64,000 bases of DNA from Bdellovibrionales bacterium. Its GTDB lineage: Bacteria > Bdellovibrionota > Bdellovibrionia > Bdellovibrionales > JAUICD01. The DNA is taken from assembly GCA_965203275.1 (NCBI GenBank), contig OZ241865.1, positions 2,240,001 to 2,304,000 of the forward strand, in the 5' to 3' direction. Positions within the stretch are counted from its first letter, which is position 1, and every line of letters begins with the position of its first letter. The position numbers and the translations under genes are program-made. Shown in pieces: positions 7,165 through 38,836 of this stretch. The notes under the pieces were generated by a model. The model was not told the origin of the DNA. It worked only from the letters and a program-made list of their open reading frames with translations, and did no database searches.

Positions 7165-8133
7165 TTGGCACCTACTGAAGAACAAATCAAACAAAGTGCA
7201 AAGCTTATACAGAATGCATTAAATGAAACAAATAAAATCATTGTTGGTCAAAGGCAGATGCTTGAATCCATTATGATAGGTATGCTTACGGGAGGTCATA
7301 TCCTGCTAGAAGGTGTTCCTGGATTAGCAAAAACTTTAGCTATCTCAACCTTTTCAAAAATTATTTCATTGGATTTTCAAAGAGTTCAATTTACTCCTGA
7401 CTTGTTACCTTCAGACCTTATTGGTACCATGATCTTTAATCAGAAAACAGGAGATTTTGTAGCAAAAAAAGGCCCTATCTTTACCAATCTTGTTTTAGCA
7501 GATGAAATCAACAGAGCTCCAGCAAAAGTTCAATCGGCTCTATTAGAAGCTATGGCTGAAAAGCAAATCACTATTGGAGAATATTCATATACCCTTGCTC
7601 ACCCTTTTCTAGTTTTAGCCACACAAAATCCTATAGAACAAGAAGGTACTTATCCTCTGCCGGAAGCTCAAATGGATCGTTTTATGTTTAAGGTTTTAGT
7701 CAACTATCCTAATAAACAGGAAGAAAGACAAATTTTAGAAAATATGTCCTACGACCAAAATATCCAACCTGATATTATAATGACAAGGGAAGACCTTTTA
7801 AACACTGCTCAAATGCTACAACATATTTATATGGATGAAAAGGTCAAGGATTATATTGTAGATTTAGTGATGTGTACTCGTGTGCCTAAAGAATATGGGT
7901 TGAACTTAGAAAGATTTCTTCAAATAGGGGTCTCACCAAGGGCAACCATTCATTTGACAAGAGCAAGTCGTGCGTATGCCTACCTTCATAATAGAAACTA
8001 TGTTACGATTGATGATGTTAAGAGCATGGCTTATCCTGTTTTACGTCACCGGCTCTTATTGACATACGAAGCAGAAGCAGAAGAATATACCAGTGACGAA
8101 GTGATTAAAAAACTCTTATCTCATATCAATTGA
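7165..8133 (+). CDS. moxR: MoxR-family AAA+ ATPase
   Basis: LEGVPGLAKT, RVQFTPDLLPSD, LADEINRAPAKVQSALLE, QNPIEQEGTYPLPEAQMDRF. Confidence 0.93.
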   Translation: MAPTEEQIKQSAKLIQNALNETNKIIVGQRQMLESIMIGMLTGGHILLEGVPGLAKTLAISTFSKIISLDFQRVQFTPDLLPSDLIGTMIFNQKTGDFVAKKGPIFTNLVLADEINRAPAKVQSALLEAMAEKQITIGEYSYTLAHPFLVLATQNPIEQEGTYPLPEAQMDRFMFKVLVNYPNKQEERQILENMSYDQNIQPDIIMTREDLLNTAQMLQHIYMDEKVKDYIVDLVMCTRVPKEYGLNLERFLQIGVSPRATIHLTRASRAYAYLHNRNYVTIDDVKSMAYPVLRHRLLLTYEAEAEEYTSDEVIKKLLSHIN

Positions 8134-25829: not shown

Positions 25830-26383
25830 TCTTGTTTCCCTAACATTGTGTCAATCCGGGATCTGGGATCCGGGATCCAGCAACCCGGCATCTGGTCCTA
25901 GAAATGAACTTTTTCCTTAACATCGTGTTAAAAAACGAGGAGATCCTTTCTACTAAAAGTGGTCAGGCTTTCTAGGTTGCCAGTAGTGATGAAGGAATTT
26001 TTTCCTTAACATGATGTTAAAAAAGGAAGAGATCCTCCCTACTAAAAGTAAACGGACTTTTGAGGCAATGACCATTTTGCCAATGGCAAAAAAAGTGAAA
26101 TAAATATCTTGTTTCCTTAACATGGTGTTAAGAGACAAAGAGATCCTTCCTACTAAAAGTAAACGGACTTTTGAGGCATTGCTCTTTTAATATAATTTTG
26201 AAAGCATTGTGTTTCCTTAACATGCAGTAAAAAAATGAAGAGATCCTCCCTACTCAAAGTGAACAGGCTTTTGAGACAATGACCATTTTGTCAACGGCGA
26301 AAGCCGTTGCGGTCATTGTCCAAAAGTGGCCAGAGGCCAGTTCACTTTGAGTGAAACAGAGGCTAGTTTACTTTTAGTGAAAA
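25830..26383 (+). repeat. Cluster of dispersed structured elements abutting the CRISPR array
   Basis: Several 5' modules and a full copy at about 26213..26355. Confidence 0.9.
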
Positions 26384-28103
26384 CAGTAGGAAGGGTTTTG
26401 ACTTATGCTTATGAAAGTTCCAGGTTTAGTTGCAGGAACTGTTGGTAGAGGAGTTTCAGTAGGAAGGGTTTTGACTTATGCTTATGAAAGAGAGGCTGGA
26501 TGGGAACATTTATTGACGAATTACAGTTTCAGTAGGAAGGGTTTTGACTTATGCTTATGAAAGTTGTTAAGGGATATATTGATGGTCGCTTCTTTACAAG
26601 TTTCAGTAGGAAGGGTTTTGACTTATGCTTATGAAAGCGAATATATTATGCATTTAGATACACTTACAACAGGTTTCAGTAGGAAGGGTTTTGACTTATG
26701 CTTATGAAAGCAAAGAAAGGATGGGCATCGGCAAATCCTTTTTATAGTTTCAGTAGGAAGGGTTTTGACTTATGCTTATGAAAGTTTATACAGGCAACAA
26801 AGCACTAAGACTTAAACGCGTTTCAGTAGGAAGGGTTTTGACTTATGCTTATGAAAGCCGGAAGAGTTGATCAGTATATTTGGGATAAGTTTGTTTCAGT
26901 AGGAAGGGTTTTGACTTATGCTTATGAAAGCTTCCCGTATAGCTTTTTCTGCATTGCTTTATGTTGTGTTTCAGTAGGAAGGGTTTTGACTTATGCTTAT
27001 GAAAGCCTACACACCGCCTTTATGCGTGGTAGTGAAAGGTTTCAGTAGGAAGGGTTTTGACTTATGCTTATGAAAGCTCACAAACGCACTTTCTTTGTCT
27101 TGATCTTGAAAGGTTTCAGTAGGAAGGGTTTTGACTTATGCTTATGAAAGAGACCTTGACGATAGTGATGGCAGTGAAATTGATAGTTTCAGTAGGAAGG
27201 GTTTTGACTTATGCTTATGAAAGTCAGTTCAGTTTACTAAGTTAAATGAGATATTTAGTTTCAGTAGGAAGGGTTTTGACTTATGCTTATGAAAGTGCAC
27301 TTCAAGCGGTCTAATGACCATCTTAGTTTTAGTTTCAGTAGGAAGGGTTTTGACTTATGCTTATGAAAGGAAGAGCCTGGTGATGGTGACTTAACACTTG
27401 CAGGGTTTCAGTAGGAAGGGTTTTGACTTATGCTTATGAAAGGTGATAATTGGTGATGAGATATTGGGTAAGCAATTAGTTTCAGTAGGAAGGGTTTTGA
27501 CTTATGCTTATGAAAGGAAGAGCCTGGTGATGGTGACTTAACACTTGCAGGGTTTCAGTAGGAAGGGTTTTGACTTATGCTTATGAAAGGTGATAATTGG
27601 TGATGAGATATTGGGTAAGCAATTAGTTTCAGTAGGAAGGGTTTTGACTTATGCTTATGAAAGGGGTTTATGATTCCGCAAAAGCTCAAGCTGAAATAAG
27701 TTTCAGTAGGAAGGGTTTTGACTTATGCTTATGAAAGTTAAACCCCGAAGCCGTCGCCCCACATGCAAATAGGTTTCAGTAGGAAGGGTTTTGACTTATG
27801 CTTATGAAAGCAAGGTCAATATGGTAACCTGTTAGGTTCTTAAAAGGTTTCAGTAGGAAGGGTTTTGACTTATGCTTATGAAAGCCAAAGTTAAATAAGA
27901 GACCTAAAGGTACACAAATGTTTCAGTAGGAAGGGTTTTGACTTATGCTTATGAAAGGTTGTATCTCTTTAGTTCTCTTTCCCTCGGTTCCTGTTTCAGT
28001 AGGAAGGGTTTTGACTTATGCTTATGAAAGGTCATTACGACAGCTTTTCTTACAGCTTTACGTATGTTTCAGTAGGAAGGGTTTTGACTTATGCTTATGA
28101 AAG
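26380..28103 (+). CRISPR. Type II-B CRISPR array, 24 repeats (first degenerate) and 23 spacers of 33-37 bp
   Basis: 38-bp repeat GTTTCAGTAGGAAGGGTTTTGACTTATGCTTATGAAAG. The GTTTCAGT start resembles the F. novicida repeat. Orientation inferred from tracrRNA pairing. Confidence 0.99.
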
Positions 28104-28237
28104 GCTTAAAATATCCTACGGATTGCAATGGGTTAGGGGTGATATGATGTGTTATTTTTCGAAGAAAAGTATATTGTAAAAAATATGCTTGATTTTGCGA
28201 AGACATTTTACCACCTCCTACTCATAGCTCTAGTAGC

Positions 28238-28391
28238 CCTATAGTATAAGTTAAATCTTTTAACCACTGTAATCATCTGATGATGTGATCAAATCATATA
28301 TAAATCATATATGATTTGTCATAAACAAAAGAGAACAAAAACTTAAGGGTTTTGTGACCAAGCCACTACCAAAGGTACGCTTGGTTTTTTT
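28238..28391 (+). ncRNA. tracrRNA-like RNA, divergent scaffold, copy A
   Basis: Anti-repeat AGTATAAGTTAAATCTTTTAACCACTGTAATC, then hairpins and an ACCAAGC..GCTTGGT-T run terminator. Confidence 0.7.
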
Positions 28392-28430
28392 ATACTCCTA
28401 TACTTTTCTATCATTGCAATAGTTTAAATC

Positions 28431-28496
28431 CTGAGTTTGATAGCCTGCCTGAAAAAAAGAAAATGTCCATATTCGCAAATCAACTGTCAAACTCAG
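28431..28496. mobile_element. 66-bp MITE-like element with 13-bp terminal inverted repeats
   Basis: CTGAGTTTGATAG ... CTGTCAAACTCAG. Related ends at about 8389, 8408, 24181 and 44067. Confidence 0.55.
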
Positions 28497-28518
28497 AATT
28501 GTGTTCAAGGACATTTTG

Positions 28519-28662
28519 TTTCCTTAACATCATGTTAAAAAATGAGGAGATCCTCCTTACTAAAAGTAAACGGACTTTTGAGGCAATCAGCCTTTGATCG
28601 ACGGCAAAAGCCGTCGGGCTGATTGCCCAAAAGCAACCAGAGGTTGGTTTACTTTTAGTGAA
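28519..28662 (+). repeat. Dispersed ~142-bp structured element
   Basis: Full copy between the two tracr-like duplicates. Confidence 0.9.
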
Positions 28663-28741
28663 AATCAGAAAAGTATATTGTAAAAAATATGCTTGATTTT
28701 GCGAAGACATTTTACCACCTCCTACTCATAGCTCTAGTAGC

Positions 28742-28884
28742 CCTATAGTATAAGTTAAATCTTTTAACCACTGTAATCATCTGATGATGTGATCAAATCA
28801 TATATGATTTATCACAAACAAAAGAGAACAAAAACTCAAGGGTTTTGTGACCAAGCCACTACCAAAGGTACGCTTGGTTTTTTT
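28742..28884 (+). ncRNA. tracrRNA-like RNA, divergent scaffold, copy B
   Basis: Near-identical duplicate of copy A (28667..28884 versus 28163..28391). Confidence 0.7.
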
Positions 28885-28954
28885 ATTTCTCTATCATTGC
28901 AACTTAATTGCAATACTGAAAAAGATTGTAGGCAAGCATAGGTTTTTTATACTC

Positions 28955-29533
28955 CTATACTTCTCTGTCATTGCAATAGTTTAAATATTCACATTGTCCA
29001 CATTGATGAGCCGTAGCATCACTTGGTGGTTTGTGGTTATCAAATAGCATTTTAAATATTTTGTCCACAATTAATTTTAACTTTTCACGTTTTTCATTAT
29101 CTATTTCAACGACTTTAAGCTTTCCATCTCCTGTTAAAATAAAACCATGACTTGCTTGTTTACTAAAATGTTTTTCAGCCAACAAAGCATAAGCTAGTAA
29201 TTGCATAATATGACCAGAATTAACTTTCTTGCCTAATTTATATTCAACAGCAAAAACACGATCAGGTGTTTCAATAATCAAATCAGATATGCCATGAAGC
29301 CTTAAAGTTTTATTTTTCAAATTTATATTATGATGTTTGATACCTTCTTTCAGGTGAAATCGAGATAAATTTCTTCTTTTAAATAAAATAGTCTCACGTT
29401 GATGATATGCACCACCTTGCTTTGACCAAAGTGGCTCTAAGGCTTTCATGCCAAGCAGTTCTCTATAATAAACTACTCTAGGACAAAAACACCACTGCCT
29501 TAATAAATTAATAGGTAAATTATAGTCCTCCAT
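28955..29533 (-). CDS. cas4: CRISPR-associated Cas4
   Basis: WCFCPR, GISD..VEYK, C..CEY..YC Fe-S cluster cysteines. Confidence 0.95.
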   Translation of the reverse strand: MEDYNLPINLLRQWCFCPRVVYYRELLGMKALEPLWSKQGGAYHQRETILFKRRNLSRFHLKEGIKHHNINLKNKTLRLHGISDLIIETPDRVFAVEYKLGKKVNSGHIMQLLAYALLAEKHFSKQASHGFILTGDGKLKVVEIDNEKREKLKLIVDKIFKMLFDNHKPPSDATAHQCGQCEYLNYCNDREV

Positions 29534-29837
29534 ACTCTCTCCAGTCTTTAAAATCATTTTTCTGATAACCTACACAAGTTGTATACTTACCAAAATAATT
29601 AATAGCAATAGGTGTGATCAAACATTTATCAGATGGTTCTAACGAATCCTTAACATGCCTAGCAATGGCATTGTATTCTGCCTTTGTTAAAAAGCCCCAA
29701 AACACTGATTTTTGTATAGGGAATAAACCATAATCTCGCAATATTTGAAATAACTTTGTCCTTTTTTTGTTCTCTTCAATGTCATAAGAGATTAAAAACT
29801 CACTTCTTATAGATTTGACAGGCATAATATTCACCAC
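29520..29837 (-). CDS. cas2: CRISPR-associated Cas2
   Basis: LISYDI..NKKR, YGLFPIQKSVFWG. Confidence 0.95.
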   Translation of the reverse strand: MVNIMPVKSIRSEFLISYDIEENKKRTKLFQILRDYGLFPIQKSVFWGFLTKAEYNAIARHVKDSLEPSDKCLITPIAINYFGKYTTCVGYQKNDFKDWREYGGL

Positions 29838-30795
29838 TTAAATAAATAAGGTTTATATTTTTGTCTTTCTTGAAAATAACCGCTTAAACGATAAACCTGC
29901 CTTTGAATAATATTTTCTAATCGCACTTTTTTCTTACGATAAAGATGCCTTTTTGCTAAAACTTTTTGAACTTCATTTATAAGTTCTTTTTTAAGAGATG
30001 GCTCCAGAAACTTTTTATCAGAAGCATTTTGACGTAACTTGATCACAGCACGATCCACAACTTGAGCTCTATATTCTTCCATTAAATCTAAAACCAAAGA
30101 AGGTTTCCCTGGGCGTTGAACATGGTAAAAACCAAGGTAAGGCTCTAAGCCAGCATTCACAATAGCATTGAAAATATAACTACTTAAAATAGCATATCCA
30201 AAGTTCAACATAGCATTGGCAATCTCTTGACTACCACGCCCTTCCCTTGTTTTAAAACTTGATGGCAAAAGTTGACTTTGAACAAGAGCTTGAAAATAAC
30301 TTTTAGAAGCAAAGCCTTCTATACCTAAAAGCCTTGTTATATCTTCACTTCTACTAGCTGTATTAGCTTGCTCTTTAAGGATTTCAGAAGCATCAAATAA
30401 GGCCTGATGTTTATGATATTTGTTTAAATGATTTAAAACTGCACGTTGATTACGTATTTTCCCGTAAACAACTTGACGTGATAAAGCAAGATTTCTTTCA
30501 TCACAAGCCTTGATTTGACCTTTCTTACTGCAACCACTGCATGTTGATGACTTGCTACAAGTCCGCTGTGAGCTACACCCCTAAAATCAAGAAAGAATAA
30601 TTTAATCCCTCTTAAAGTAAAAGATTCTATAAGGTCACTCGAAAAGGTCACCCCACGTTTGGCAATAGACAAAGTCGAAAGGCGATTTAAAGGGAAGATA
30701 TATTCCGAAGGTGATTTATTTTTATTGACTACAACTAGTAAGCCACTACGAATCCCTACATAAGTTCCATAATTAAATATCACTAAATGTTTCAT
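29831..30795 (-). pseudogene. cas1: CRISPR-associated Cas1, split by a single 1-nt frameshift near 30521
   Basis: Adding one A at AGA-AAG-GTC gives a continuous frame: RKGQIKACDERNLALSRQVVYGKIRNQ...LLGIEG...NAMLNFGY...GFYH...LDLMEEYR. Confidence 0.92.
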
Positions 30796-30970
30796 TGACC
30801 TTATCTTACAATATCTTATAATAAAAAACCGGTCGTATAAACTCCCGGATGAAAATTTCGGATGAATATTTTTTAATTCTTTATTGTTCTTAGAATAGCA
30901 TATTTTTACAAATAAATCAAATAAAAAACAATTCTAAGACAAGTTTTATCATATTGAGACATTATGGATT

Positions 30971-31795
30971 TTATTTTAAGGAATTATCATTTTTAAAGAC
31001 AGCCTGCAAAAGAGCTTGTTTGACTTTTTCGTTTAAACTTGAACCTATGTATTCAATGGGTTGATTAATTTCTTTTAATTTGTCTAAATCACTGGTTGTT
31101 CTTGCCTTTGTTAAAGGATCGTTTTGAATGACCTGAATACTTTCATCATTTAATTGATCTATGGGAGTTAATTTTATTTTAGGTCTTGTGACATTATCAA
31201 TTTGATATTCTAGTTTTTTTACAAATGATTTTAACTCTTTGTGATCATCTAAGTTGATATTAATCCAGGAGTCAGGGATATGTTTTATATGATCTTTTTC
31301 AAGAAAAAAATCTTTAGTATCTTTAGTATTCAAGTTTAATTTGAATTGTTTCTTAGAGCGGAAGGGCTTATTGATAACTTTTTTCAATTCACCTTTAGTT
31401 CTATTAATAGCAAAGCTAGAGAATTTATTCCCATCTTTTTTTGAATTAGAATCACTCCATATCTGATATATTGGTTTTTTATTCCAAGAAGTTCTTTTTT
31501 GAAGTGTGTGTCCTCCCTTTGTAGGCACTGGTAAAGAAAACATTTTTCTAACTTTTTGATGTTGATGATATTTTTGATTTTTAAAAATAAGATGATCCTT
31601 TAGAAAATCTTTAAGTGATAATTTAGGGTTTTGATTTCTTTTTTCTTCCCAATCTTTATGTAACCTATACCATTGCTCTTTAACTGGCAAAGTTAATGTT
31701 TTCTTTTCTATTTTAATTTCAAAAGCTTCTTTTTTGATCATTTGAGCTTTGCAGTGTAGCTGATCAGCTATACACTGAAGCTTTTTTAAATCCAA
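30971..31795 (-). CDS. Stand-alone Cas9 C-terminal (WED/PAM-interacting) domain ORF
   Basis: TLPVKEQWYRL, HQKVRKMFSLP, KRTSWNKKPIYQI and YQIDNVTRPKIKL match the FnCas9 C-terminus (recalled). Possible ATG at 31741. Confidence 0.85.
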   Translation of the reverse strand: MDLKKLQCIADQLHCKAQMIKKEAFEIKIEKKTLTLPVKEQWYRLHKDWEEKRNQNPKLSLKDFLKDHLIFKNQKYHQHQKVRKMFSLPVPTKGGHTLQKRTSWNKKPIYQIWSDSNSKKDGNKFSSFAINRTKGELKKVINKPFRSKKQFKLNLNTKDTKDFFLEKDHIKHIPDSWININLDDHKELKSFVKKLEYQIDNVTRPKIKLTPIDQLNDESIQVIQNDPLTKARTTSDLDKLKEINQPIEYIGSSLNEKVKQALLQAVFKNDNSLK

Positions 31796-31907
31796 ATTAT
31801 TTTTTAAGCCCTTTTGATCTGTTAAAGGTATGATCTTTTGTGGGGAAAAAATAATTTATAAAAAAATAAAAAGATTGCTTGATTTTACAGGTAGAGTATT
31901 TTATCTT

Positions 31908-32045
31908 CTTTTTTCATAAGCATAGGTTAAAATTCTTAACCGCTGTAATCATCTAAAAGCATCTTGAACGGACCTCTACATCGCGTACGTCTGCCCTTCT
32001 TAAAGAAGGGATCACTTGCCACCTCTAAAAGGTGGCATTTGTTTT
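31908..32045 (+). ncRNA. tracrRNA, F. novicida-like scaffold
   Basis: Anti-repeat TTTTCATAAGCATAGGTTAAAATTCTTAACCGCTGTAATC, then CATCTAAAAGCATCTTGAACGGACCTCT..ACGTCTG and a TTGCCACC..GGTGGC terminator, as in Fn tracrRNA. TTGATT-17-TATCTT promoter upstream. Confidence 0.9.
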
Positions 32046-32099
32046 ATGAGTATTTTACAACAATGACTAGGATTATTTGTGATGACTGATTCTAGATAT

Positions 32100-32336
32100 T
32101 CAACTTGATACATTACGCCAAGCCTTTTTATGAGGTATACGTTTTTGTTTTTTTTGAGATAGACGTCGATCGGCTACCTTAGAAAAATAAAAATCTTCTT
32201 GTAATTCTAAAGCTTGATGAATTAAGTCTAAGCTCAATGTAGAAAGTTTTTGTTGTTTCTTTTGAGATAACTTATCTAATAATAAATAAGTTTGATGGTC
32301 TATTGTTAAATTGATCTTTTTTTTCATAACAGGCAT
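32100..32336 (-). CDS. RHH/CopG-type antitoxin followed by a truncated RelE-like toxin start (MYQVEYLESV at 32113)
   Basis: KINLTID, LDLIHQALELQEDFYF..A..R, IPHKKAW. The overlapping downstream ATG loses toxin-like character after about 12 codons. Confidence 0.7.
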   Translation of the reverse strand: MPVMKKKINLTIDHQTYLLLDKLSQKKQQKLSTLSLDLIHQALELQEDFYFSKVADRRLSQKKQKRIPHKKAWRNVSS

Positions 32337-32433: not shown

Positions 32434-33375
32434 TTATATTTGCTTATTAGGGATGCAAGAGTATTTAGAGGCTTCATATCTTTTAGTAATTTGTTCACAC
32501 CTTGTTTTAATAGAGCAAAATAATTCTTTATCAATTTGAAAGTTTGCTGGTGTAAATAAATCAATCCTTCGATCTTGCCTTATACGTTTTGCTTTAGTAA
32601 TAATTCTTTCTTGGGATTCTTTTGGATCAAACACGCCAATAGTCATCCCTCCTCTGGCTCTCACAAGGGAAAAGGCAGGAATATCTGTATCCCCATCGCC
32701 AATATAAATCATGTTTTCAAATGGACACCATTCTTCCCCTTTAGATACAAAGTCGTCCACCTTGTATGAAGATTGCTTTTTAAAACAGCCCTTTTGGATT
32801 TCAAATAAGGCTCTTGTTTTAGACGTTTTATCCATACAGTAGATAGGGATATTTTTTTCAATTTTTTTAGTCTTTATATCTTTAATAGCTTTATATTTAC
32901 ATCCAAAAAATTGATGAATTAGAGAAGTTTCTTTGTGACATTCAAACACAGAAGATACTAAGTCCTGAAGCCCTGCTGTTATAATAAAATGATGTATGGC
33001 CATATTGTTATCTTGATAGAGTGGTTGAGAGGATAAGTTTTTTATTTCTTTAAGTCCCTTTAAAACATCAGGGTAAAATTTTATTTTATAAGCAATAAGA
33101 CTTTCAAATGTTCCTTTATCATCTAAAGCTATTTTTTTGCCTTGCTGATCTTTAGCTATTTCTGACAAGCGATACATCCAAACAGGAGCTTCACTGGTTG
33201 AGATAGAATCCATTGGTTCTTTTGCATCTACTCCTGATATTTCTTTCACATCTATCCAAAACTGTTTTGTTGCTTTTTTTCCTATAAAAAGTTCAATTAA
33301 CTCAGTTGTAGAATCATTTGAAGTAAGGGTTTTGTCAAAGTCCCAGATTATAGCAATATTGTTTTTTTTATTCAT
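32434..33375 (-). CDS. HAD-superfamily hydrolase
   Basis: WDFDKTLT motif I, IITAGL motif II, KT..LFEI.KG, YIGDGDTDIP motif IV. Confidence 0.9.
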   Translation of the reverse strand: MNKKNNIAIIWDFDKTLTSNDSTTELIELFIGKKATKQFWIDVKEISGVDAKEPMDSISTSEAPVWMYRLSEIAKDQQGKKIALDDKGTFESLIAYKIKFYPDVLKGLKEIKNLSSQPLYQDNNMAIHHFIITAGLQDLVSSVFECHKETSLIHQFFGCKYKAIKDIKTKKIEKNIPIYCMDKTSKTRALFEIQKGCFKKQSSYKVDDFVSKGEEWCPFENMIYIGDGDTDIPAFSLVRARGGMTIGVFDPKESQERIITKAKRIRQDRRIDLFTPANFQIDKELFCSIKTRCEQITKRYEASKYSCIPNKQI

Positions 33376-33388
33376 ATTTAAAACACAT

Positions 33389-33889
33389 TTATTGAGGTGG
33401 TTGATTTGATACTTCTTGCTCTTTTTTTCTCTTTTCTTCTCGCTTGTAAAACTCTTTCCAGTTTTCTTGGACTTGTGGGTCATCCCAAGCTTTCTTATTA
33501 AGCTGTTGAATCCTTCCATAATCAAAAGGCTTTTGAGATGTGTCCATTTCTTTTTGTTTTTCAGCTTTTTCTTTTTGCTTTCTTATTTTTTCTCGCTTGT
33601 AAAACTCTTTCCAGTTTTCTTGGACTTGTGGATCAGCCCAAGCCTTCTTATTAAGTTGTTGAATCCTCTGATAATCAAAAGGCTTTTGAGATGTGTCCAT
33701 TTCTTTTTGTTTTTCAGCTTTTTCTTTTTGCTTTCTTATTCTTTCTCGCTTGTAAAACTCTTCCCAATTTTTTTTGACTTGTGGATTAGCCCGGGCCTTT
33801 TCTTTGAGTTGTTGAATGTTGCTATAATCAAAAGGCTCTTGAGATGTGTCCACTTCTTTTTGTTTTGTGATGGTTGCTACTTTACTCAT
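33389..33889 (-). CDS. Hypothetical protein of three 51-aa tandem repeats
   Basis: 3 x 153-bp repeats (DTSQxPFDY..IQQL..KA...PQV..NW.EFYKRE). GAGG RBS. Confidence 0.75.
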   Translation of the reverse strand: MSKVATITKQKEVDTSQEPFDYSNIQQLKEKARANPQVKKNWEEFYKRERIRKQKEKAEKQKEMDTSQKPFDYQRIQQLNKKAWADPQVQENWKEFYKREKIRKQKEKAEKQKEMDTSQKPFDYGRIQQLNKKAWDDPQVQENWKEFYKREEKRKKEQEVSNQPPQ

Positions 33890-34013: not shown

Positions 34014-37000
34014 TCAAGATGTTTTATTATTTAACAACCACTGTTTTACTTGTGTTGTTTTTGGAATTGTGAACTCAACTGTTACTATATCATCAAATGA
34101 TTTAATTTTAACTTCATTTCGATCTTTAGGAAATTTAAAAGGTTGAGAAAACCACTGAAAATCTGAAGACATAAGATGATAATCGCTTCTATTGGTTTCT
34201 TTTGCTTTTTTAAAATTTTCTTTATCTTCATAGAGTTTAATTTTTCCTTTCCATGAATCTCTCTTAGAAATAAAAGGAATAGAAATTTTACCAATATCGG
34301 CTATATTCATAGTGATCTTTGCATCACATCGACCTGAATCTTTATGCCTAACTTTAGCACATTGAATGCAACTATCAGTTATATCTTTTTGAGATATAGT
34401 CATCCATTCTATGGGTTCAATATTCCAGCTTTGAGGTAATCCTGAATAATGTTTTTTAGGTACAGAGTTTTGACTTAAAATAGTATGGGGCCTATCTTTT
34501 CCTTCAAGTCCATACTTTGCCAATGAATCGTCTGATACTGTTTGAATAATTGTTTTTCTATCCCATGTGTTACGTCTTAATCGAATATTTCCTATTGTTG
34601 TAAGTATAGGCAATGAATATACTTTTTTTACTTTTTGATGTGGATGTTGATGATCTTCTTCACGACGAAATAAAAGACACTGTTGAAGAAACTTTTGCAA
34701 AGATTGATTGGGATCAGTTTCATCAAGCTCTGATTTAAGTTTTTCCCAAGAACTATAAAAAGGTAACAAAATTTTATCTTTACTAATAAACTTTTGATTT
34801 TTCTTTTCTATGATGCACTTACTCCAATTGTCAATAGCATCTTTGACTGTTTGAGGCTCTTTTTTGCCATTTGGTGTGAGTGCTGTTTGGATTTTAGTTT
34901 TGATAGTTTGATAACTTAGACCATCAAGTAATTTAGCTTGCTTTTTTTCATCTTTGTCTGCTTCACGAATACCAATATCCATCAGAAATTCTTGTGCCTT
35001 TTTCTTATTTATAAACCATAATTGATAATTTTCATCTGAAAATTTTGATCTTATCAAAAACTCCTGATCTCTTAATAAGTGAAAATCTTTTTCTTGATAA
35101 GATACTGCATTTTTGGGATGAAATCCTTTTTGTATTGTACCATCATCATTTTGAATCAATGGGAAAAATCTCTCTCCTATACTATTATCTCTATGTATCT
35201 TATAACTGATTTTAATTTGTTCTTTTTTATTTTGACTTAATAATTGGCGATGATGAGTTTCTACTGTGTAAGCTTTTCTTTTTTCTAAACATTTCTCTTG
35301 CAGTTGGTTTGGTGGAACTTTGATTAGATTAAAAATAAGGTTTTTAGTCACTTCACCTGTGCCTCTATTCATAGGCTCTAAATGAATATTTTGATCTATA
35401 TTGAGTTTAAGGCTACCCTCCTTCTTATGTTGATCTACTGCAATGGCAAAAGCTAAAGTAGCGTCTATTAAATGAGAATACGGCTTTTGAGAGTTACCTT
35501 CTTTAGCATAATCTTTGAATTCTGAAATATTAGAATATTTTTCATAATCTTTTCTTAGATCATAAATGCCATCACCTCTTGTATTAGACTGAGCCTCTAC
35601 TCCAAACCAATCAAAGCAAATTTGATCTTGCCAACCAGCACGTTTAGCTTTTTTATAAAAATTATTAGCAAGTACTTGAGCAAAATGTGGTTGTGTCCCA
35701 TTAACAAATGTCTTTGAACGGCTACTAATAGCATCAATGACTTTTTGATGCAATTCATGGTCTGTTAAAAATAAAGCATGTCGAAAAGCCCTCTGCTCAT
35801 CAGAAGTTAAGTTGATCAAGTTAGTGTATTTGCCAAACTTAAAATCTTCACCTTTACCATGACCTATTTGCTCCTCAATCCACTTCATAATCTTTTGATG
35901 ATCTGTTGTACCAAATAATTTTTGTTTGTATTTATTATGTAATTTTTGTATTTGTAAAGGATTGTTTCCTTTTGTCTTTAATTTATCAATACCTTCTAAG
36001 TAATAAACGACTTTATCATCTGTTAATCTTTTTTGATTCTCTGGTTGTTTTTTATTATCTGTATTTTTTGCATTTGGATTTTGATCTTGAGAATCAATAA
36101 ATTTCTCTAACTGTTGATTTGATATTTGCAAAACAGTAGCTAAGTCTTTTAATAACTGGTAACGCTTTTGCCGAGGCTTGTGATTACAATAAGTTAAAAG
36201 ACAATCCCGATCTTCAAATCGACCTGTATCTTCATAGCCTCGCCCTTTAACCAAACGATATCGTGGGTGGATAAATAATCTGCCATCTTTTGCCCTTTGC
36301 CTTAATTTGTAATATTTGCAAAGTAAATGAAGAAATGATTTTTGCTCAAATAAATCATCTGTTTGAAAGTTTGGTGTTGTTTCTAGGTGATCTGGTAACT
36401 CACTCTTTTTGATCACATCTTCTAATTTGCTTTTGGTTTCTGAAATATCTTGGCCATCTCTTTTAAGTTGTTTGATTTTTTTAGCATGGCTAAAAATTTC
36501 ATTGAGGTTTAAAGGATCATCCTTTTTAACTCTATCAAAAATAAATTGCAAAATCCTTGCATCAAGGTTTTTTTGATTTCTCTTATAGGTATCTTTTTTC
36601 AATTGATCAGCTTTTTGATTGTTAAAATATGGCTTCTTTTGACCACTTTGTAGACCTTTTAGCTCACTTTCAAAATCTTCTAAATAATTTTGAGATAACT
36701 CTTTAAGGCTACTTAGCCACTCTTGCCATTGAGGATATTTGCTATCTAAATATACAGGATTAAGAATTAAGCTTTGACAATGAGGAGGACGACGATTGTT
36801 ATTATTTTGATAAGGAGGAATGGTCCATTTAGGGTCTTCTCTAAGCCAAAAGTCAATCACACTGCCTGTTTTGTTTTCTTTATCATAATAAGTTTTCCAG
36901 CATTTTTTTAGTTTGTTATAGTCATAAGCTTCATCTTGGCTTTTGTCTTTGTCTTTTTCTGTCACACGCCATTGTTTATCAAGCCATCTATCAAAATATT

Positions 37001-38393
37001 TATTAAGTCTTTTTTCACACCAATAGTCACCTTCTTGATGCTTGAAATCATTAAAGTATTTTCTGAGAGGTTTTAGTTCTAAATTACTGAGATGACCAAT
37101 TAAGTGGGTAAGGCTCTCAACAGTGAGAGGCTCTCTGTTTGTTGGTTTATATCTTTTTGAATGCAGATTTGAATGCAAATGATCACAAAACACTTTTAAA
37201 AATTTATTTTGCTTCTTTTGTTTTTCAGAATGATTTTTATATTCTAAAACATTTTTAACTTCTTCAAAGTATTTGCTACGATGACGACCACCTGATTTGA
37301 GTTCCTCAAGATTTTGATAGATTGCAAAAGCCAAATGATTCAAATGTGTTTTCTTCCATTCAAGTTTCTTTTTTTGATAGTCATTGTCTTTTGATTCTTC
37401 TCTTTCTGGCTCATCAAAAGCATTTTCTTCTATCTTTTTATCTAAGTCTTTAAAACTTTCTGATTTAAAATTCCAAAAAGAGTTTTTTATCTCCTGATCT
37501 TCTGTATCCGGCTCTGGAAGATGATCTTTTAATTTTTGAATGTTTTCTTTTCTATCTTCTAAATACTTAATGAAATTCATTGTGTTAGAACTAAATGCTG
37601 ACTCTTTGTTTTGCTCTGTTTCATTTTCTTCTTTCCAATGATCCCATTCTTTTAATATTGATGAAAAGAAATCTTGAGTTTGCTGATGAGAACTTTGTTT
37701 CTGCCATTCCTCTATAATCCATCTTGATACATCAGATAATTTTGATTTGTTTTTATTTTGCTTATCTTTGTAATATTTTTGAGGATCTGTACAAAGCTTT
37801 TTAATTTCTTTTGTTCTACTAATGAATACTTGCCTTGAGGCCATTCTGTTAGGTTCTTTATTTATAGCTTCATATATTTTATCTAACTTTTCTTGTCCTT
37901 CTTTAGTCCATTCTTGTATGGCTGTATCAAAATCATAGCCATCTTGATTTTTCTCAACTCCATCTGGTAATTCTTTTGGCAATTCTTCTGGTAATTCATT
38001 ATAAACCTCTGTTGGAAACTGGCTTAAAATTTCAGCATTATACTGCTCTGTCAAAAAACTAAAGCCTCTGCGGTTCAACAAAAAACTAATGGTTTGTTGT
38101 ATGTCAGAATTCCACTCTAAACCAAACCTCTCACACCAAATCAACTTAAAAAGCCTTTTGACCATTTGACGACGGTCAAATCCTCTCTTTTGATGACGTT
38201 GAGCTGTGCGATCTCTCATCAACAATGTATAAGCGTCTTTTTCTAGCTGATAAATCTTACCCTTTTGATTAAGAGAAGTTTTAGAGCTTAACTCTGTTCC
38301 TTCAACATAATGAGCCGTATAAACTCCAGTTGCTTTAGCTCCTAAATCAATAGCAATAGGATGAATTATTTTTTTCTTGCGATTTTGAGACAT
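34014..38393 (-). CDS. cas9: Type II-B Cas9 (Csx12) with internal in-frame deletion of distal REC3, RuvC-II and the HNH core
   Basis: IAIDLG, RTAQRHQKRGFDRRQMVKRL bridge helix, SGGRHRS, LSNLELKPLRKYFND, TFVNGTQ and SHLIDA present. No ITESNAF or DHIIPRS motifs. GGAGG RBS at the 38393 ATG. Confidence 0.95.
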   Translation of the reverse strand: MSQNRKKKIIHPIAIDLGAKATGVYTAHYVEGTELSSKTSLNQKGKIYQLEKDAYTLLMRDRTAQRHQKRGFDRRQMVKRLFKLIWCERFGLEWNSDIQQTISFLLNRRGFSFLTEQYNAEILSQFPTEVYNELPEELPKELPDGVEKNQDGYDFDTAIQEWTKEGQEKLDKIYEAINKEPNRMASRQVFISRTKEIKKLCTDPQKYYKDKQNKNKSKLSDVSRWIIEEWQKQSSHQQTQDFFSSILKEWDHWKEENETEQNKESAFSSNTMNFIKYLEDRKENIQKLKDHLPEPDTEDQEIKNSFWNFKSESFKDLDKKIEENAFDEPEREESKDNDYQKKKLEWKKTHLNHLAFAIYQNLEELKSGGRHRSKYFEEVKNVLEYKNHSEKQKKQNKFLKVFCDHLHSNLHSKRYKPTNREPLTVESLTHLIGHLSNLELKPLRKYFNDFKHQEGDYWCEKRLNKYFDRWLDKQWRVTEKDKDKSQDEAYDYNKLKKCWKTYYDKENKTGSVIDFWLREDPKWTIPPYQNNNNRRPPHCQSLILNPVYLDSKYPQWQEWLSSLKELSQNYLEDFESELKGLQSGQKKPYFNNQKADQLKKDTYKRNQKNLDARILQFIFDRVKKDDPLNLNEIFSHAKKIKQLKRDGQDISETKSKLEDVIKKSELPDHLETTPNFQTDDLFEQKSFLHLLCKYYKLRQRAKDGRLFIHPRYRLVKGRGYEDTGRFEDRDCLLTYCNHKPRQKRYQLLKDLATVLQISNQQLEKFIDSQDQNPNAKNTDNKKQPENQKRLTDDKVVYYLEGIDKLKTKGNNPLQIQKLHNKYKQKLFGTTDHQKIMKWIEEQIGHGKGEDFKFGKYTNLINLTSDEQRAFRHALFLTDHELHQKVIDAISSRSKTFVNGTQPHFAQVLANNFYKKAKRAGWQDQICFDWFGVEAQSNTRGDGIYDLRKDYEKYSNISEFKDYAKEGNSQKPYSHLIDATLAFAIAVDQHKKEGSLKLNIDQNIHLEPMNRGTGEVTKNLIFNLIKVPPNQLQEKCLEKRKAYTVETHHRQLLSQNKKEQIKISYKIHRDNSIGERFFPLIQNDDGTIQKGFHPKNAVSYQEKDFHLLRDQEFLIRSKFSDENYQLWFINKKKAQEFLMDIGIREADKDEKKQAKLLDGLSYQTIKTKIQTALTPNGKKEPQTVKDAIDNWSKCIIEKKNQKFISKDKILLPFYSSWEKLKSELDETDPNQSLQKFLQQCLLFRREEDHQHPHQKVKKVYSLPILTTIGNIRLRRNTWDRKTIIQTVSDDSLAKYGLEGKDRPHTILSQNSVPKKHYSGLPQSWNIEPIEWMTISQKDITDSCIQCAKVRHKDSGRCDAKITMNIADIGKISIPFISKRDSWKGKIKLYEDKENFKKAKETNRSDYHLMSSDFQWFSQPFKFPKDRNEVKIKSFDDIVTVEFTIPKTTQVKQWLLNNKTS

Positions 38394-38836
38394 AAAACCT
38401 CCATAAGGCTCAATATAAGTGCTAAAATCGCTAAGGTATAACAATCTTTATTTATTGTCAAACTCAATCGTCAGACCCATTCATTAAGAGTGACCTTTAG
38501 AGATCTCATGCGAGGGGATCGTGTTTTTCTCTATAATACATCAAATTGTCAGAGTGTTTCTTTAGGAAGTGGTATAGTGGGAGATAATATTCCGGGATCC
38601 GGCATCCGGCAACCCGGCAACAAAATGACAAAAGGAAAAGGAAATAAGGCAGAAAAAATGCGTAAAGACATTATAAATGGTTAGAAAGATTGAAAATATT
38701 TTAAACCTTTTCAAAATAAAATTTGTGGATGCTAAATTTTATAAAAAGATGTTGACAAACAAAATAAAATATGGTTTACAGACAGTTTTTAGTCTACAAA
38801 TAAAAAACAAAAATAAAGCTGTGAATTACTTACATT

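Follow-up and report, generated by a model that had tools for sequence, protein, structure and literature searches.

A C-terminal Cas9 fragment upstream of cas1 in a decaying type II-B CRISPR-Cas locus of a Bdellovibrionales bacterium: a probable relic of cas9 replacement

Why does a type II-B CRISPR-Cas locus that already encodes a long Cas9 carry, directly upstream of cas1, a second open reading frame (ORF) that resembles only the end of a Cas9 protein? The locus lies in a 64,000-nucleotide stretch of contig OZ241865.1 (assembly GCA_965203275.1; hereafter the window). The preliminary description of this ORF had offered several answers: a recombinable store of a second PAM specificity, a PAM-interacting (PI) module acting in trans as part of a split Cas9, or the old tail left behind by a domain replacement. 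Our analysis indicates that the ORF is most likely a neutral relic of the in-situ replacement of an entire cas9 gene in a locus that is itself decaying.

The type II-B locus and its cargo genes

Type II-B loci comprise a cas9 of the Csx12 family, cas1, cas2, cas4, a tracrRNA and a repeat array, a composition that 11 comparison loci match. All of these components were found here; cas1 and cas9 are broken. Along the minus strand, the long cas9 is followed by genes for a repeat protein and a HAD-like protein, by an antitoxin-like gene and the stub of a toxin gene, and then by the ORF, cas1, cas2 and cas4; a tracrRNA-like gene (tracr1) lies on the plus strand between the toxin stub and the ORF, and two tracr-like copies and the array lie beyond cas4. 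The adaptation genes cas2 and cas4 (28955..29837, minus strand) are of type II-B and open. The cas1 gene (29831..30795, minus strand) is frameshifted near 30518; the same frameshift is present in a contig of run X3 at depth 52, and an in-frame allele in one contig of run X7 at depth 4.

Between the two Cas9-related genes, an antitoxin-like ORF at 32100-32336 is accompanied by what is left of its toxin partner, a stub of 33 codons (pair at 32012..32336, minus strand). No library hit gave the pair a family name, and an intact-looking paralogous pair is located elsewhere in the genome. The HAD-like protein (32434..33375, minus strand) matches the candidate defence system PDC-S34 (PADLOC, E 1e-45) and Pfam HAD. 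A PDC-S34-like HAD gene near a type II-B cas9 was also observed in one of the other loci examined (G011; L007 1612-2616), with 34% identity. The 166-aa protein with three 51-aa repeats (33389..33889, minus strand) has no family match; its gene is located directly downstream of the long cas9 and is preceded by a strong Shine-Dalgarno (SD) sequence. The genome also holds a separate, open 1052-aa type II Cas9 with an NMENI-type cas1 and a 9-repeat array; this system and a further array of 13-14 repeats lie elsewhere (L048 519-4570; genome ~369.4-370.4 kb).

The ORF encodes the end of a Francisella-like Cas9

The ORF (31795..30971, minus strand) contains 274 codons from a TTG start, or 256 from an ATG at 31741, and is free of stops, as first described. 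Its 3' end is 175 bp from cas1, so that it occupies the slot of cas9. Residues 33-262 match FnCas9 1393-1615 (9ehf numbering) with an E-value of 2.3e-20 in phmmer, and the top eight Foldseek matches of its AlphaFold model are all FnCas9. The model, built on 10 sequences only, is confident in the PI domain (pLDDT 81-91 over aa 171-270) and mostly at 45-62 in the severed WED part. The homology to Cas9 WED/PI in the preliminary description was thus borne out for aa 20-274 (30971..31738), which correspond to the C-terminal part of the WED and the complete PI of a Francisella-like type II-B Cas9, but not for the first 19 codons (31739..31795). The homology to the closest relative, P0001, begins at IKKEAF; the 19 residues ahead of it match nothing. 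Their codons overlap a plus-strand hairpin (~31744-31783) that has a run of T's behind it.

Counting on the phmmer alignment placed R204 of the IDNVTRPK motif (codon 31184..31186, minus strand) at the site of FnCas9 R1556 and R232 of the KAR motif at that of R1585, so the equivalences first proposed for these motifs hold. R1556 and R1585 are described as reading the two G's of the NGG PAM in FnCas9 (PMC12231574, PMC11213958). As a whole type II-B effector, for which RuvC, HNH and REC are needed in a single polypeptide, the ORF fails, covering 0/6 catalytic positions. No II-B Cas9 model of NCBIfam or PADLOC matched it, and Pfam Cas9_C_2 scored below threshold (19.3 bits vs a cut-off of 27). As a fragment of Cas9, it has the Francisella-like WED/PI sequence and the predicted fold with the PAM-reading arginines.

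The SD sequence ahead of the TTG scores -4.6 kcal/mol, and 34% of 898 long ORFs are as weak or weaker, with cas1 and the HAD gene scoring weaker still. Promoter-like sites numbered 13 vs 8.9 +/- 2.9 in shuffled sequences, near shuffle level, and the single site at the ORF would start transcription inside it; neither scan has discriminating power here. In a simulation of random substitutions, the probability that the ORF shows no stop was 0.77 after 5 substitutions and 0.58 after 10. The open frame needs no selection and is expected soon after a break.

The ORF derives from a cas9 gene of normal length

Residues 20-210 of the ORF are identical at 186/191 positions to P0001, a 503-aa protein of another assembly, known as a protein sequence only, that extends 235 residues further upstream, to RuvC-III. 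In the WED-end tree (FastTree), the two are sisters with a support of 99. A genome of the same genus (G001) encodes a single intact 1644-aa Cas9 (P0002) directly before cas1, and its tail is of the ORF type (51-53% identical). Because P0001 extends upstream and the G001 tail sits on an intact Cas9, the ORF is the 3' sixth of a normal cas9 gene encoding ~1640 aa. The truncation point is at about aa 19/20 of the ORF, ~250 residues past the RuvC-III motif of P0002, a position that by FnCas9 domain boundaries we take to be in the middle of the WED.

Metagenome scans with P0001 and with the array repeat returned nothing on the DNA surroundings of P0001, and a genome scan with the ORF as query was blank. 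An alignment scan gave two loci, with L009, from a Bdellovibrionales genome, as the best named relative; it is not counted apart from L006 because the two may be the same locus. In a sample of the phylum, 2/401 genomes matched, the own genome among them. Type II-B loci, detected by PF21069, were found in 13/384 genomes of the order, the own genome counted. Among the 12 others, 11 loci have cas9 joined to cas1, with the gene of G257 split across two contigs and counted by its 3' contig alone, and G150 left out (a broken cas9 on an 8-kb contig that has no cas1); none of the 11 (0/11) has a second Cas9 tail. The preliminary description had reasoned that a lack of expression, of conservation of the orphan ORF in related genomes and of recombinants would together mark it as a neutral relic; the lack of conservation is what these loci display. 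The type II-B cas9 of G150 (L036 1460-3471), broken and truncated, is another instance of decay within the order.

An HMM search recovered 135 proteins, of which 36 are of at most 352 aa; 18 of these reach the C-terminal end, one of them being the ORF's own shorter call. The starts of the 18 are scattered over profile positions 63-287. The start of P0036 (266 aa) is no more than two profile positions away from that of the ORF; this protein resembles Cas9 right from its N-terminus and contains a frameshift-like stretch. A conserved break point, as a split Cas9 would have, is not evident from the 0/11 loci and the scattered starts, among which only P0036 comes close to the ORF. Two contigs of the collection, which may come from one source, encode the full 274-aa product with the 19 leading residues.

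A separate lineage for the long Cas9

The long type II-B Cas9 (34014..38444, minus strand; 1476 aa, likely start 38393) has a complete native WED/PI and has lost, in frame, the catalytic sites of RuvC-II and HNH: the RuvC-II E and the HNH H/N are absent from it and present in all other full-length rows aligned. This 1476-aa protein recurs in a second assembly, where it differs by a single substitution. Its identity to the ORF is 19% in the PI region, and its WED shares 16-22% with the lineage of the ORF. Identity to P0011, by region from RuvC-I to PI, is 64/61/66/57/68/47%. In a quick version of the REC tree, P0011 is the sister of the long Cas9 (support 93) and the full-length carriers of the ORF-type tail form a separate clade (support 96); the WED-end tree (FastTree) groups the long Cas9 with P0011 and P0015 (support 93). 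Its tail is common to 20 other proteins, the full-length ones of 1650-1744 aa. On this evidence, the long Cas9 is of a lineage other than that of the ORF and shows no tail swap.

The tail of the long Cas9 is indeed divergent, as first noted, but intact relatives carry the same tail. Profile alignment of the two C-termini, a check proposed at the outset, shows that they are homologous (hhalign, 99.7%) and aligns the arginine of the KDSGR motif (R1372) with R204 of the ORF and Fn R1556; this arginine is invariant in 22/22 members of the long-Cas9 family. Both tails keep the R1556-site arginine, and a difference in PAM between them is at most possible. The idea of a left-behind tail survives in part. 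The fragment does look like a leftover, but the item replaced would be a whole cas9 gene, as opposed to the PI domain alone of the long Cas9, because the latter is congruent with P0011 from RuvC-I to PI and the carriers of the ORF-type tail form their own REC clade.

Proteins P0011-P0030 (L008, L030) include intact type II-B Cas9s of 1650-1740 aa with a WED/PI unlike that of FnCas9, and in L031, L037, L032 and L035 still other kinds of tail accompany a similar REC lobe. Such varied tails on similar REC lobes point to possible old shuffling of WED/PI after RuvC-III. The P0011 family is a source of type II-B enzymes, and we found no determined PAM for it.

The tracrRNA-like genes

The only complete tracrRNA-like gene, tracr1 (31910..32045, plus strand), contains the conserved type II-B core, a terminator and an anti-repeat cognate to the array. 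It is positioned upstream of the ORF and not in the usual place after cas4. Its predicted duplex with the repeat of its own array amounts to -37.3 kcal/mol vs -10.7 to -16.3 kcal/mol with nine foreign repeats. The canonical place, behind a canonical leader, is occupied by the two tracr-like copies (28231-28396 and 28735-28888, plus strand; span 28231..28888), which have a weaker anti-repeat and a duplex of -22.0 kcal/mol, a value inside the foreign-repeat range. The conserved 3' tracr core, present in 9/9 aligned relatives, is absent from both. They begin with an anti-repeat and CTGTAATCATC, followed by hairpins and a terminator unlike the type II-B core, and could represent either a tracrRNA in decay or some other small RNA. 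None of these tracrRNAs has a family in Rfam. The stretch at 31790-31910 was considered as the leader of a lost second array and dropped, the conserved leader motifs being absent.

Probable replacement of a resident cas9

Taken from what is observed directly (the homology of the ORF, its truncation point, two Cas9 lineages in one locus and broken partner genes), the following course of events is the probable one. An incoming cassette, in which a type II-B cas9 of unrelated origin travelled with defence genes as cargo and with a tracrRNA, would have ended up upstream of the resident cas9, which lost its 5' ~4.1 kb in the same event or in a later deletion. The piece that remained would have come to lie in frame with 19 codons of adjoining DNA, and its frame may still be open because the break is recent. 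Subsequent decay would account for the loss of RuvC-II/HNH from the incoming Cas9, the frameshift in cas1 and the tracr-like copies without a core in the usual position. What a replacement relic should present is found here: a near-identical longer gene, a fragment in the slot of the effector, and a new effector of another lineage. The fragment most likely does nothing; we infer this lack of function, as well as the order and the recency of the events.

Several observations count against a relic: the open frame, the retention of both PAM arginines, the SD sequence, weak as it is, before the TTG, and the start of P0036 near that of the ORF. In addition, tracr1 pairs best with the array yet sits with the incoming cassette, a placement that a simple replacement story does not explain.

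Possible exchange within the PI domain and the possibility of a silent donor

Comparison with P0001 revealed a mosaic. In the segment of aa 211-243 (31067..31165, minus strand), which holds R232 at the R1585 site, only 11/33 residues are identical, vs the 186/191 upstream and 25/31 downstream (segment vs flanks, Fisher p 8e-18); both alleles retain R204 and R232. Run X3 contains a low-depth joint 31071/31166 and one depth-2 contig that replaces 31072-31165. Contig depth in this run, which may be the source sample, is 69-79 over 30797-31477 vs 46-52 on both flanks, depth being a poor measure of copies that may include other organisms. The divergence of the segment suggests a recent exchange of alleles inside the PI among close strains. 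The ORF/P0001 pair, 97% identical outside a 33-residue PAM-contact segment, constitutes a natural experiment that could map the PAM determinants of FnCas9-like enzymes.

The mosaic raises the question of whether the fragment is retained, or serves, as a donor from which complete cas9 alleles of the same lineage in the population undergo gene conversion. The stored segment would then be aa 211-243, with the R1585-site helix, and the partners would be the type II-B cas9 genes of co-occurring strains and not the long Cas9. The sharp mosaic boundary around this helix is in line with such a donor, natural swapping of PI domains is on record, and the excess depth over the ORF in X3 together with the depth-2 contig fits other copies in the same sample. 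However, we found no recipient of the ORF's lineage and no other type II-B cas9 piece in the genome, the exchange may predate the truncation, a change of PAM is not evident when both alleles keep R204 and R232, and other organisms may contribute to the depth. We consider a silent donor unlikely.

Marginally less probable is an artefact in which the assembly joined the loci of two strains near 31740-31846, so that in one of these strains the ORF would be just the last part of an undamaged cas9. Among the pieces listed, no contig bridges the 5' junction at 31724-31846, and the listed X3 and X6 contigs both begin at 31846; because of this, mis-assembly keeps a small probability, to which the extra depth of X3 across the ORF adds. 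The junction is, however, of low complexity, and such DNA breaks short-word contigs. The genome is a single contig lacking any other II-B cas9 piece, the flank depths of X3 are alike (52 vs 46), and the 274-aa product with its 19 residues occurs on the two contigs mentioned above, with the same reservation as to their source.

The proposal of a module in trans or split Cas9

The proposal of an in-trans or split-Cas9 component holds that the fragment is translated and, by association with either the long Cas9 or the adaptation complex, adds an NGG-type PAM reader. The open frame, the confidently modelled PI, the weak SD sequence at the TTG and the similar extent of P0036 are compatible with it. 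Nevertheless, the long Cas9 is nuclease-dead and has its own complete WED/PI, no complementary N-terminal Cas9 partner lacking WED/PI exists in the genome, and none of the 11 related loci has a second tail. The fragment begins mid-WED, ~250 residues past the RuvC-III position of P0002, the 18 short homologues have no common start, the one promoter-like site would start inside the ORF with counts near shuffle level, and cas1 is broken. These findings speak against the proposal and make it very improbable.

The proposed recombination at the HQKV block

The 12 identical nucleotides in the HQKV block (31551..31562 = 34630-34641) on which a PAM swap had been envisaged are indeed exact and in the same codon phase, but a match of this length is at chance level: 931/1000 versions of the ORF with shuffled codons also have some 12-mer in common with the long cas9, and the codon-aligned DNA identity of the two genes over their homologous stretch is 145/273 (53%). 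Crossing over within these 12 nucleotides would preserve the reading frame, but with the two blocks in direct orientation it is predicted to produce an irreversible 3,079-bp deletion that takes away the only complete tracrRNA, and the fused product would still lack RuvC-II/HNH. Joints linking ~34635 to ~31556, which the preliminary description had suggested looking for, were absent among the 14 listed joints in the contigs of four runs (0/14; contigs drop rare variants), and contigs pass straight across the ORF block in X3 and X6 and across the long-cas9 block in X3, X6 and X7. No recombinase gene was found among the neighbours scanned. A recombinable cassette of shufflon or silent-cassette kind, which would call for above-chance homology, reversibility and a recombinase, through which the long Cas9 acquires the PI of the ORF and a second PAM, is thus extremely improbable despite the exact in-phase block and the homologous tails.

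Comparison with known systems

The ORF is similar to the WED-PI of FnCas9 (PDB 5b2o, 9ehf) in sequence, in the predicted fold of ~1393-1615 and in the R1556/R1585 sites; unlike FnCas9, it misses ~85% of the protein (all RuvC, BH, REC and HNH and the first part of the WED) and is a separate ORF. The cas9 replacement that probably lies behind it is a known process. In-situ exchange of cas9 is presented as a general trend by Makarova et al. 2025 (PMC12669027), with type II-C examples in Extended Data Fig. 9. As in the shuffling outlined there, an adaptation module and array stand beside a distantly related cas9; in contrast to the cases depicted, the present locus is of type II-B and still shows a piece of the cas9 that was displaced, while its newly arrived cas9 is itself dead and set apart by cargo genes.

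Natural swapping of PI domains between full-length alleles (bioRxiv 10.1101/2021.05.01.442224) and uncoupled evolution of the PI (PMC7606464) have been reported. The ORF/P0001 mosaic in the PI, and the variation of the II-B WED/PI type among similar REC lobes, resemble these cases, although the published swaps, as summarized there, concern full-length alleles without a stored cassette, and the long Cas9 here shows no swap. No precedent for a stand-alone or stored recombinable PI cassette was found in open-licence papers and bioRxiv; such a cassette, if true, would be new. Degradation is common among type II CRISPR-Cas systems; in Mollicutes, at least 8/21 are described as degraded (PMC6882279), and the several independent lesions per locus are shared with our case, whereas the host and the subtype differ and two cas9 lineages are present here. 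As a relic, the ORF is of minor importance, and its interest is that it plainly captures a type II-B locus in which cas9 has been replaced and has decayed.

The array and repeated elements

The CRISPR array (26380..28103, plus strand) consists of 24 repeats of 38 nt and 23 spacers, two of which are duplicated, in tandem, at 27329-27622. Searches of the own genome for protospacers gave no self-target; the sole match joined spacer 3 with one of the spacers in a different array. The core of one spacer (1/23 tried) had 0 matches in viral contigs, and the whole array had no match in phages and chance matches only in five relatives. Spacer 3 (26564-26599) matches at 26/27 positions a spacer of a Cas12a-type array at ~245 kb of the genome (L047 ~7324-7350), which indicates that the two systems probably target the same invader site. 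A GC-rich, GGATCC-based tandem motif at 38589-38628 recurs many times in this AT-rich genome. An element of ~157 nt (28507-28663) occurs throughout the genome, with 1,060 hits after merging, 691 of which are of at least 120 nt, and is also present in the same-genus L006; at 26380, one copy either interrupts the array's first repeat or abuts it.
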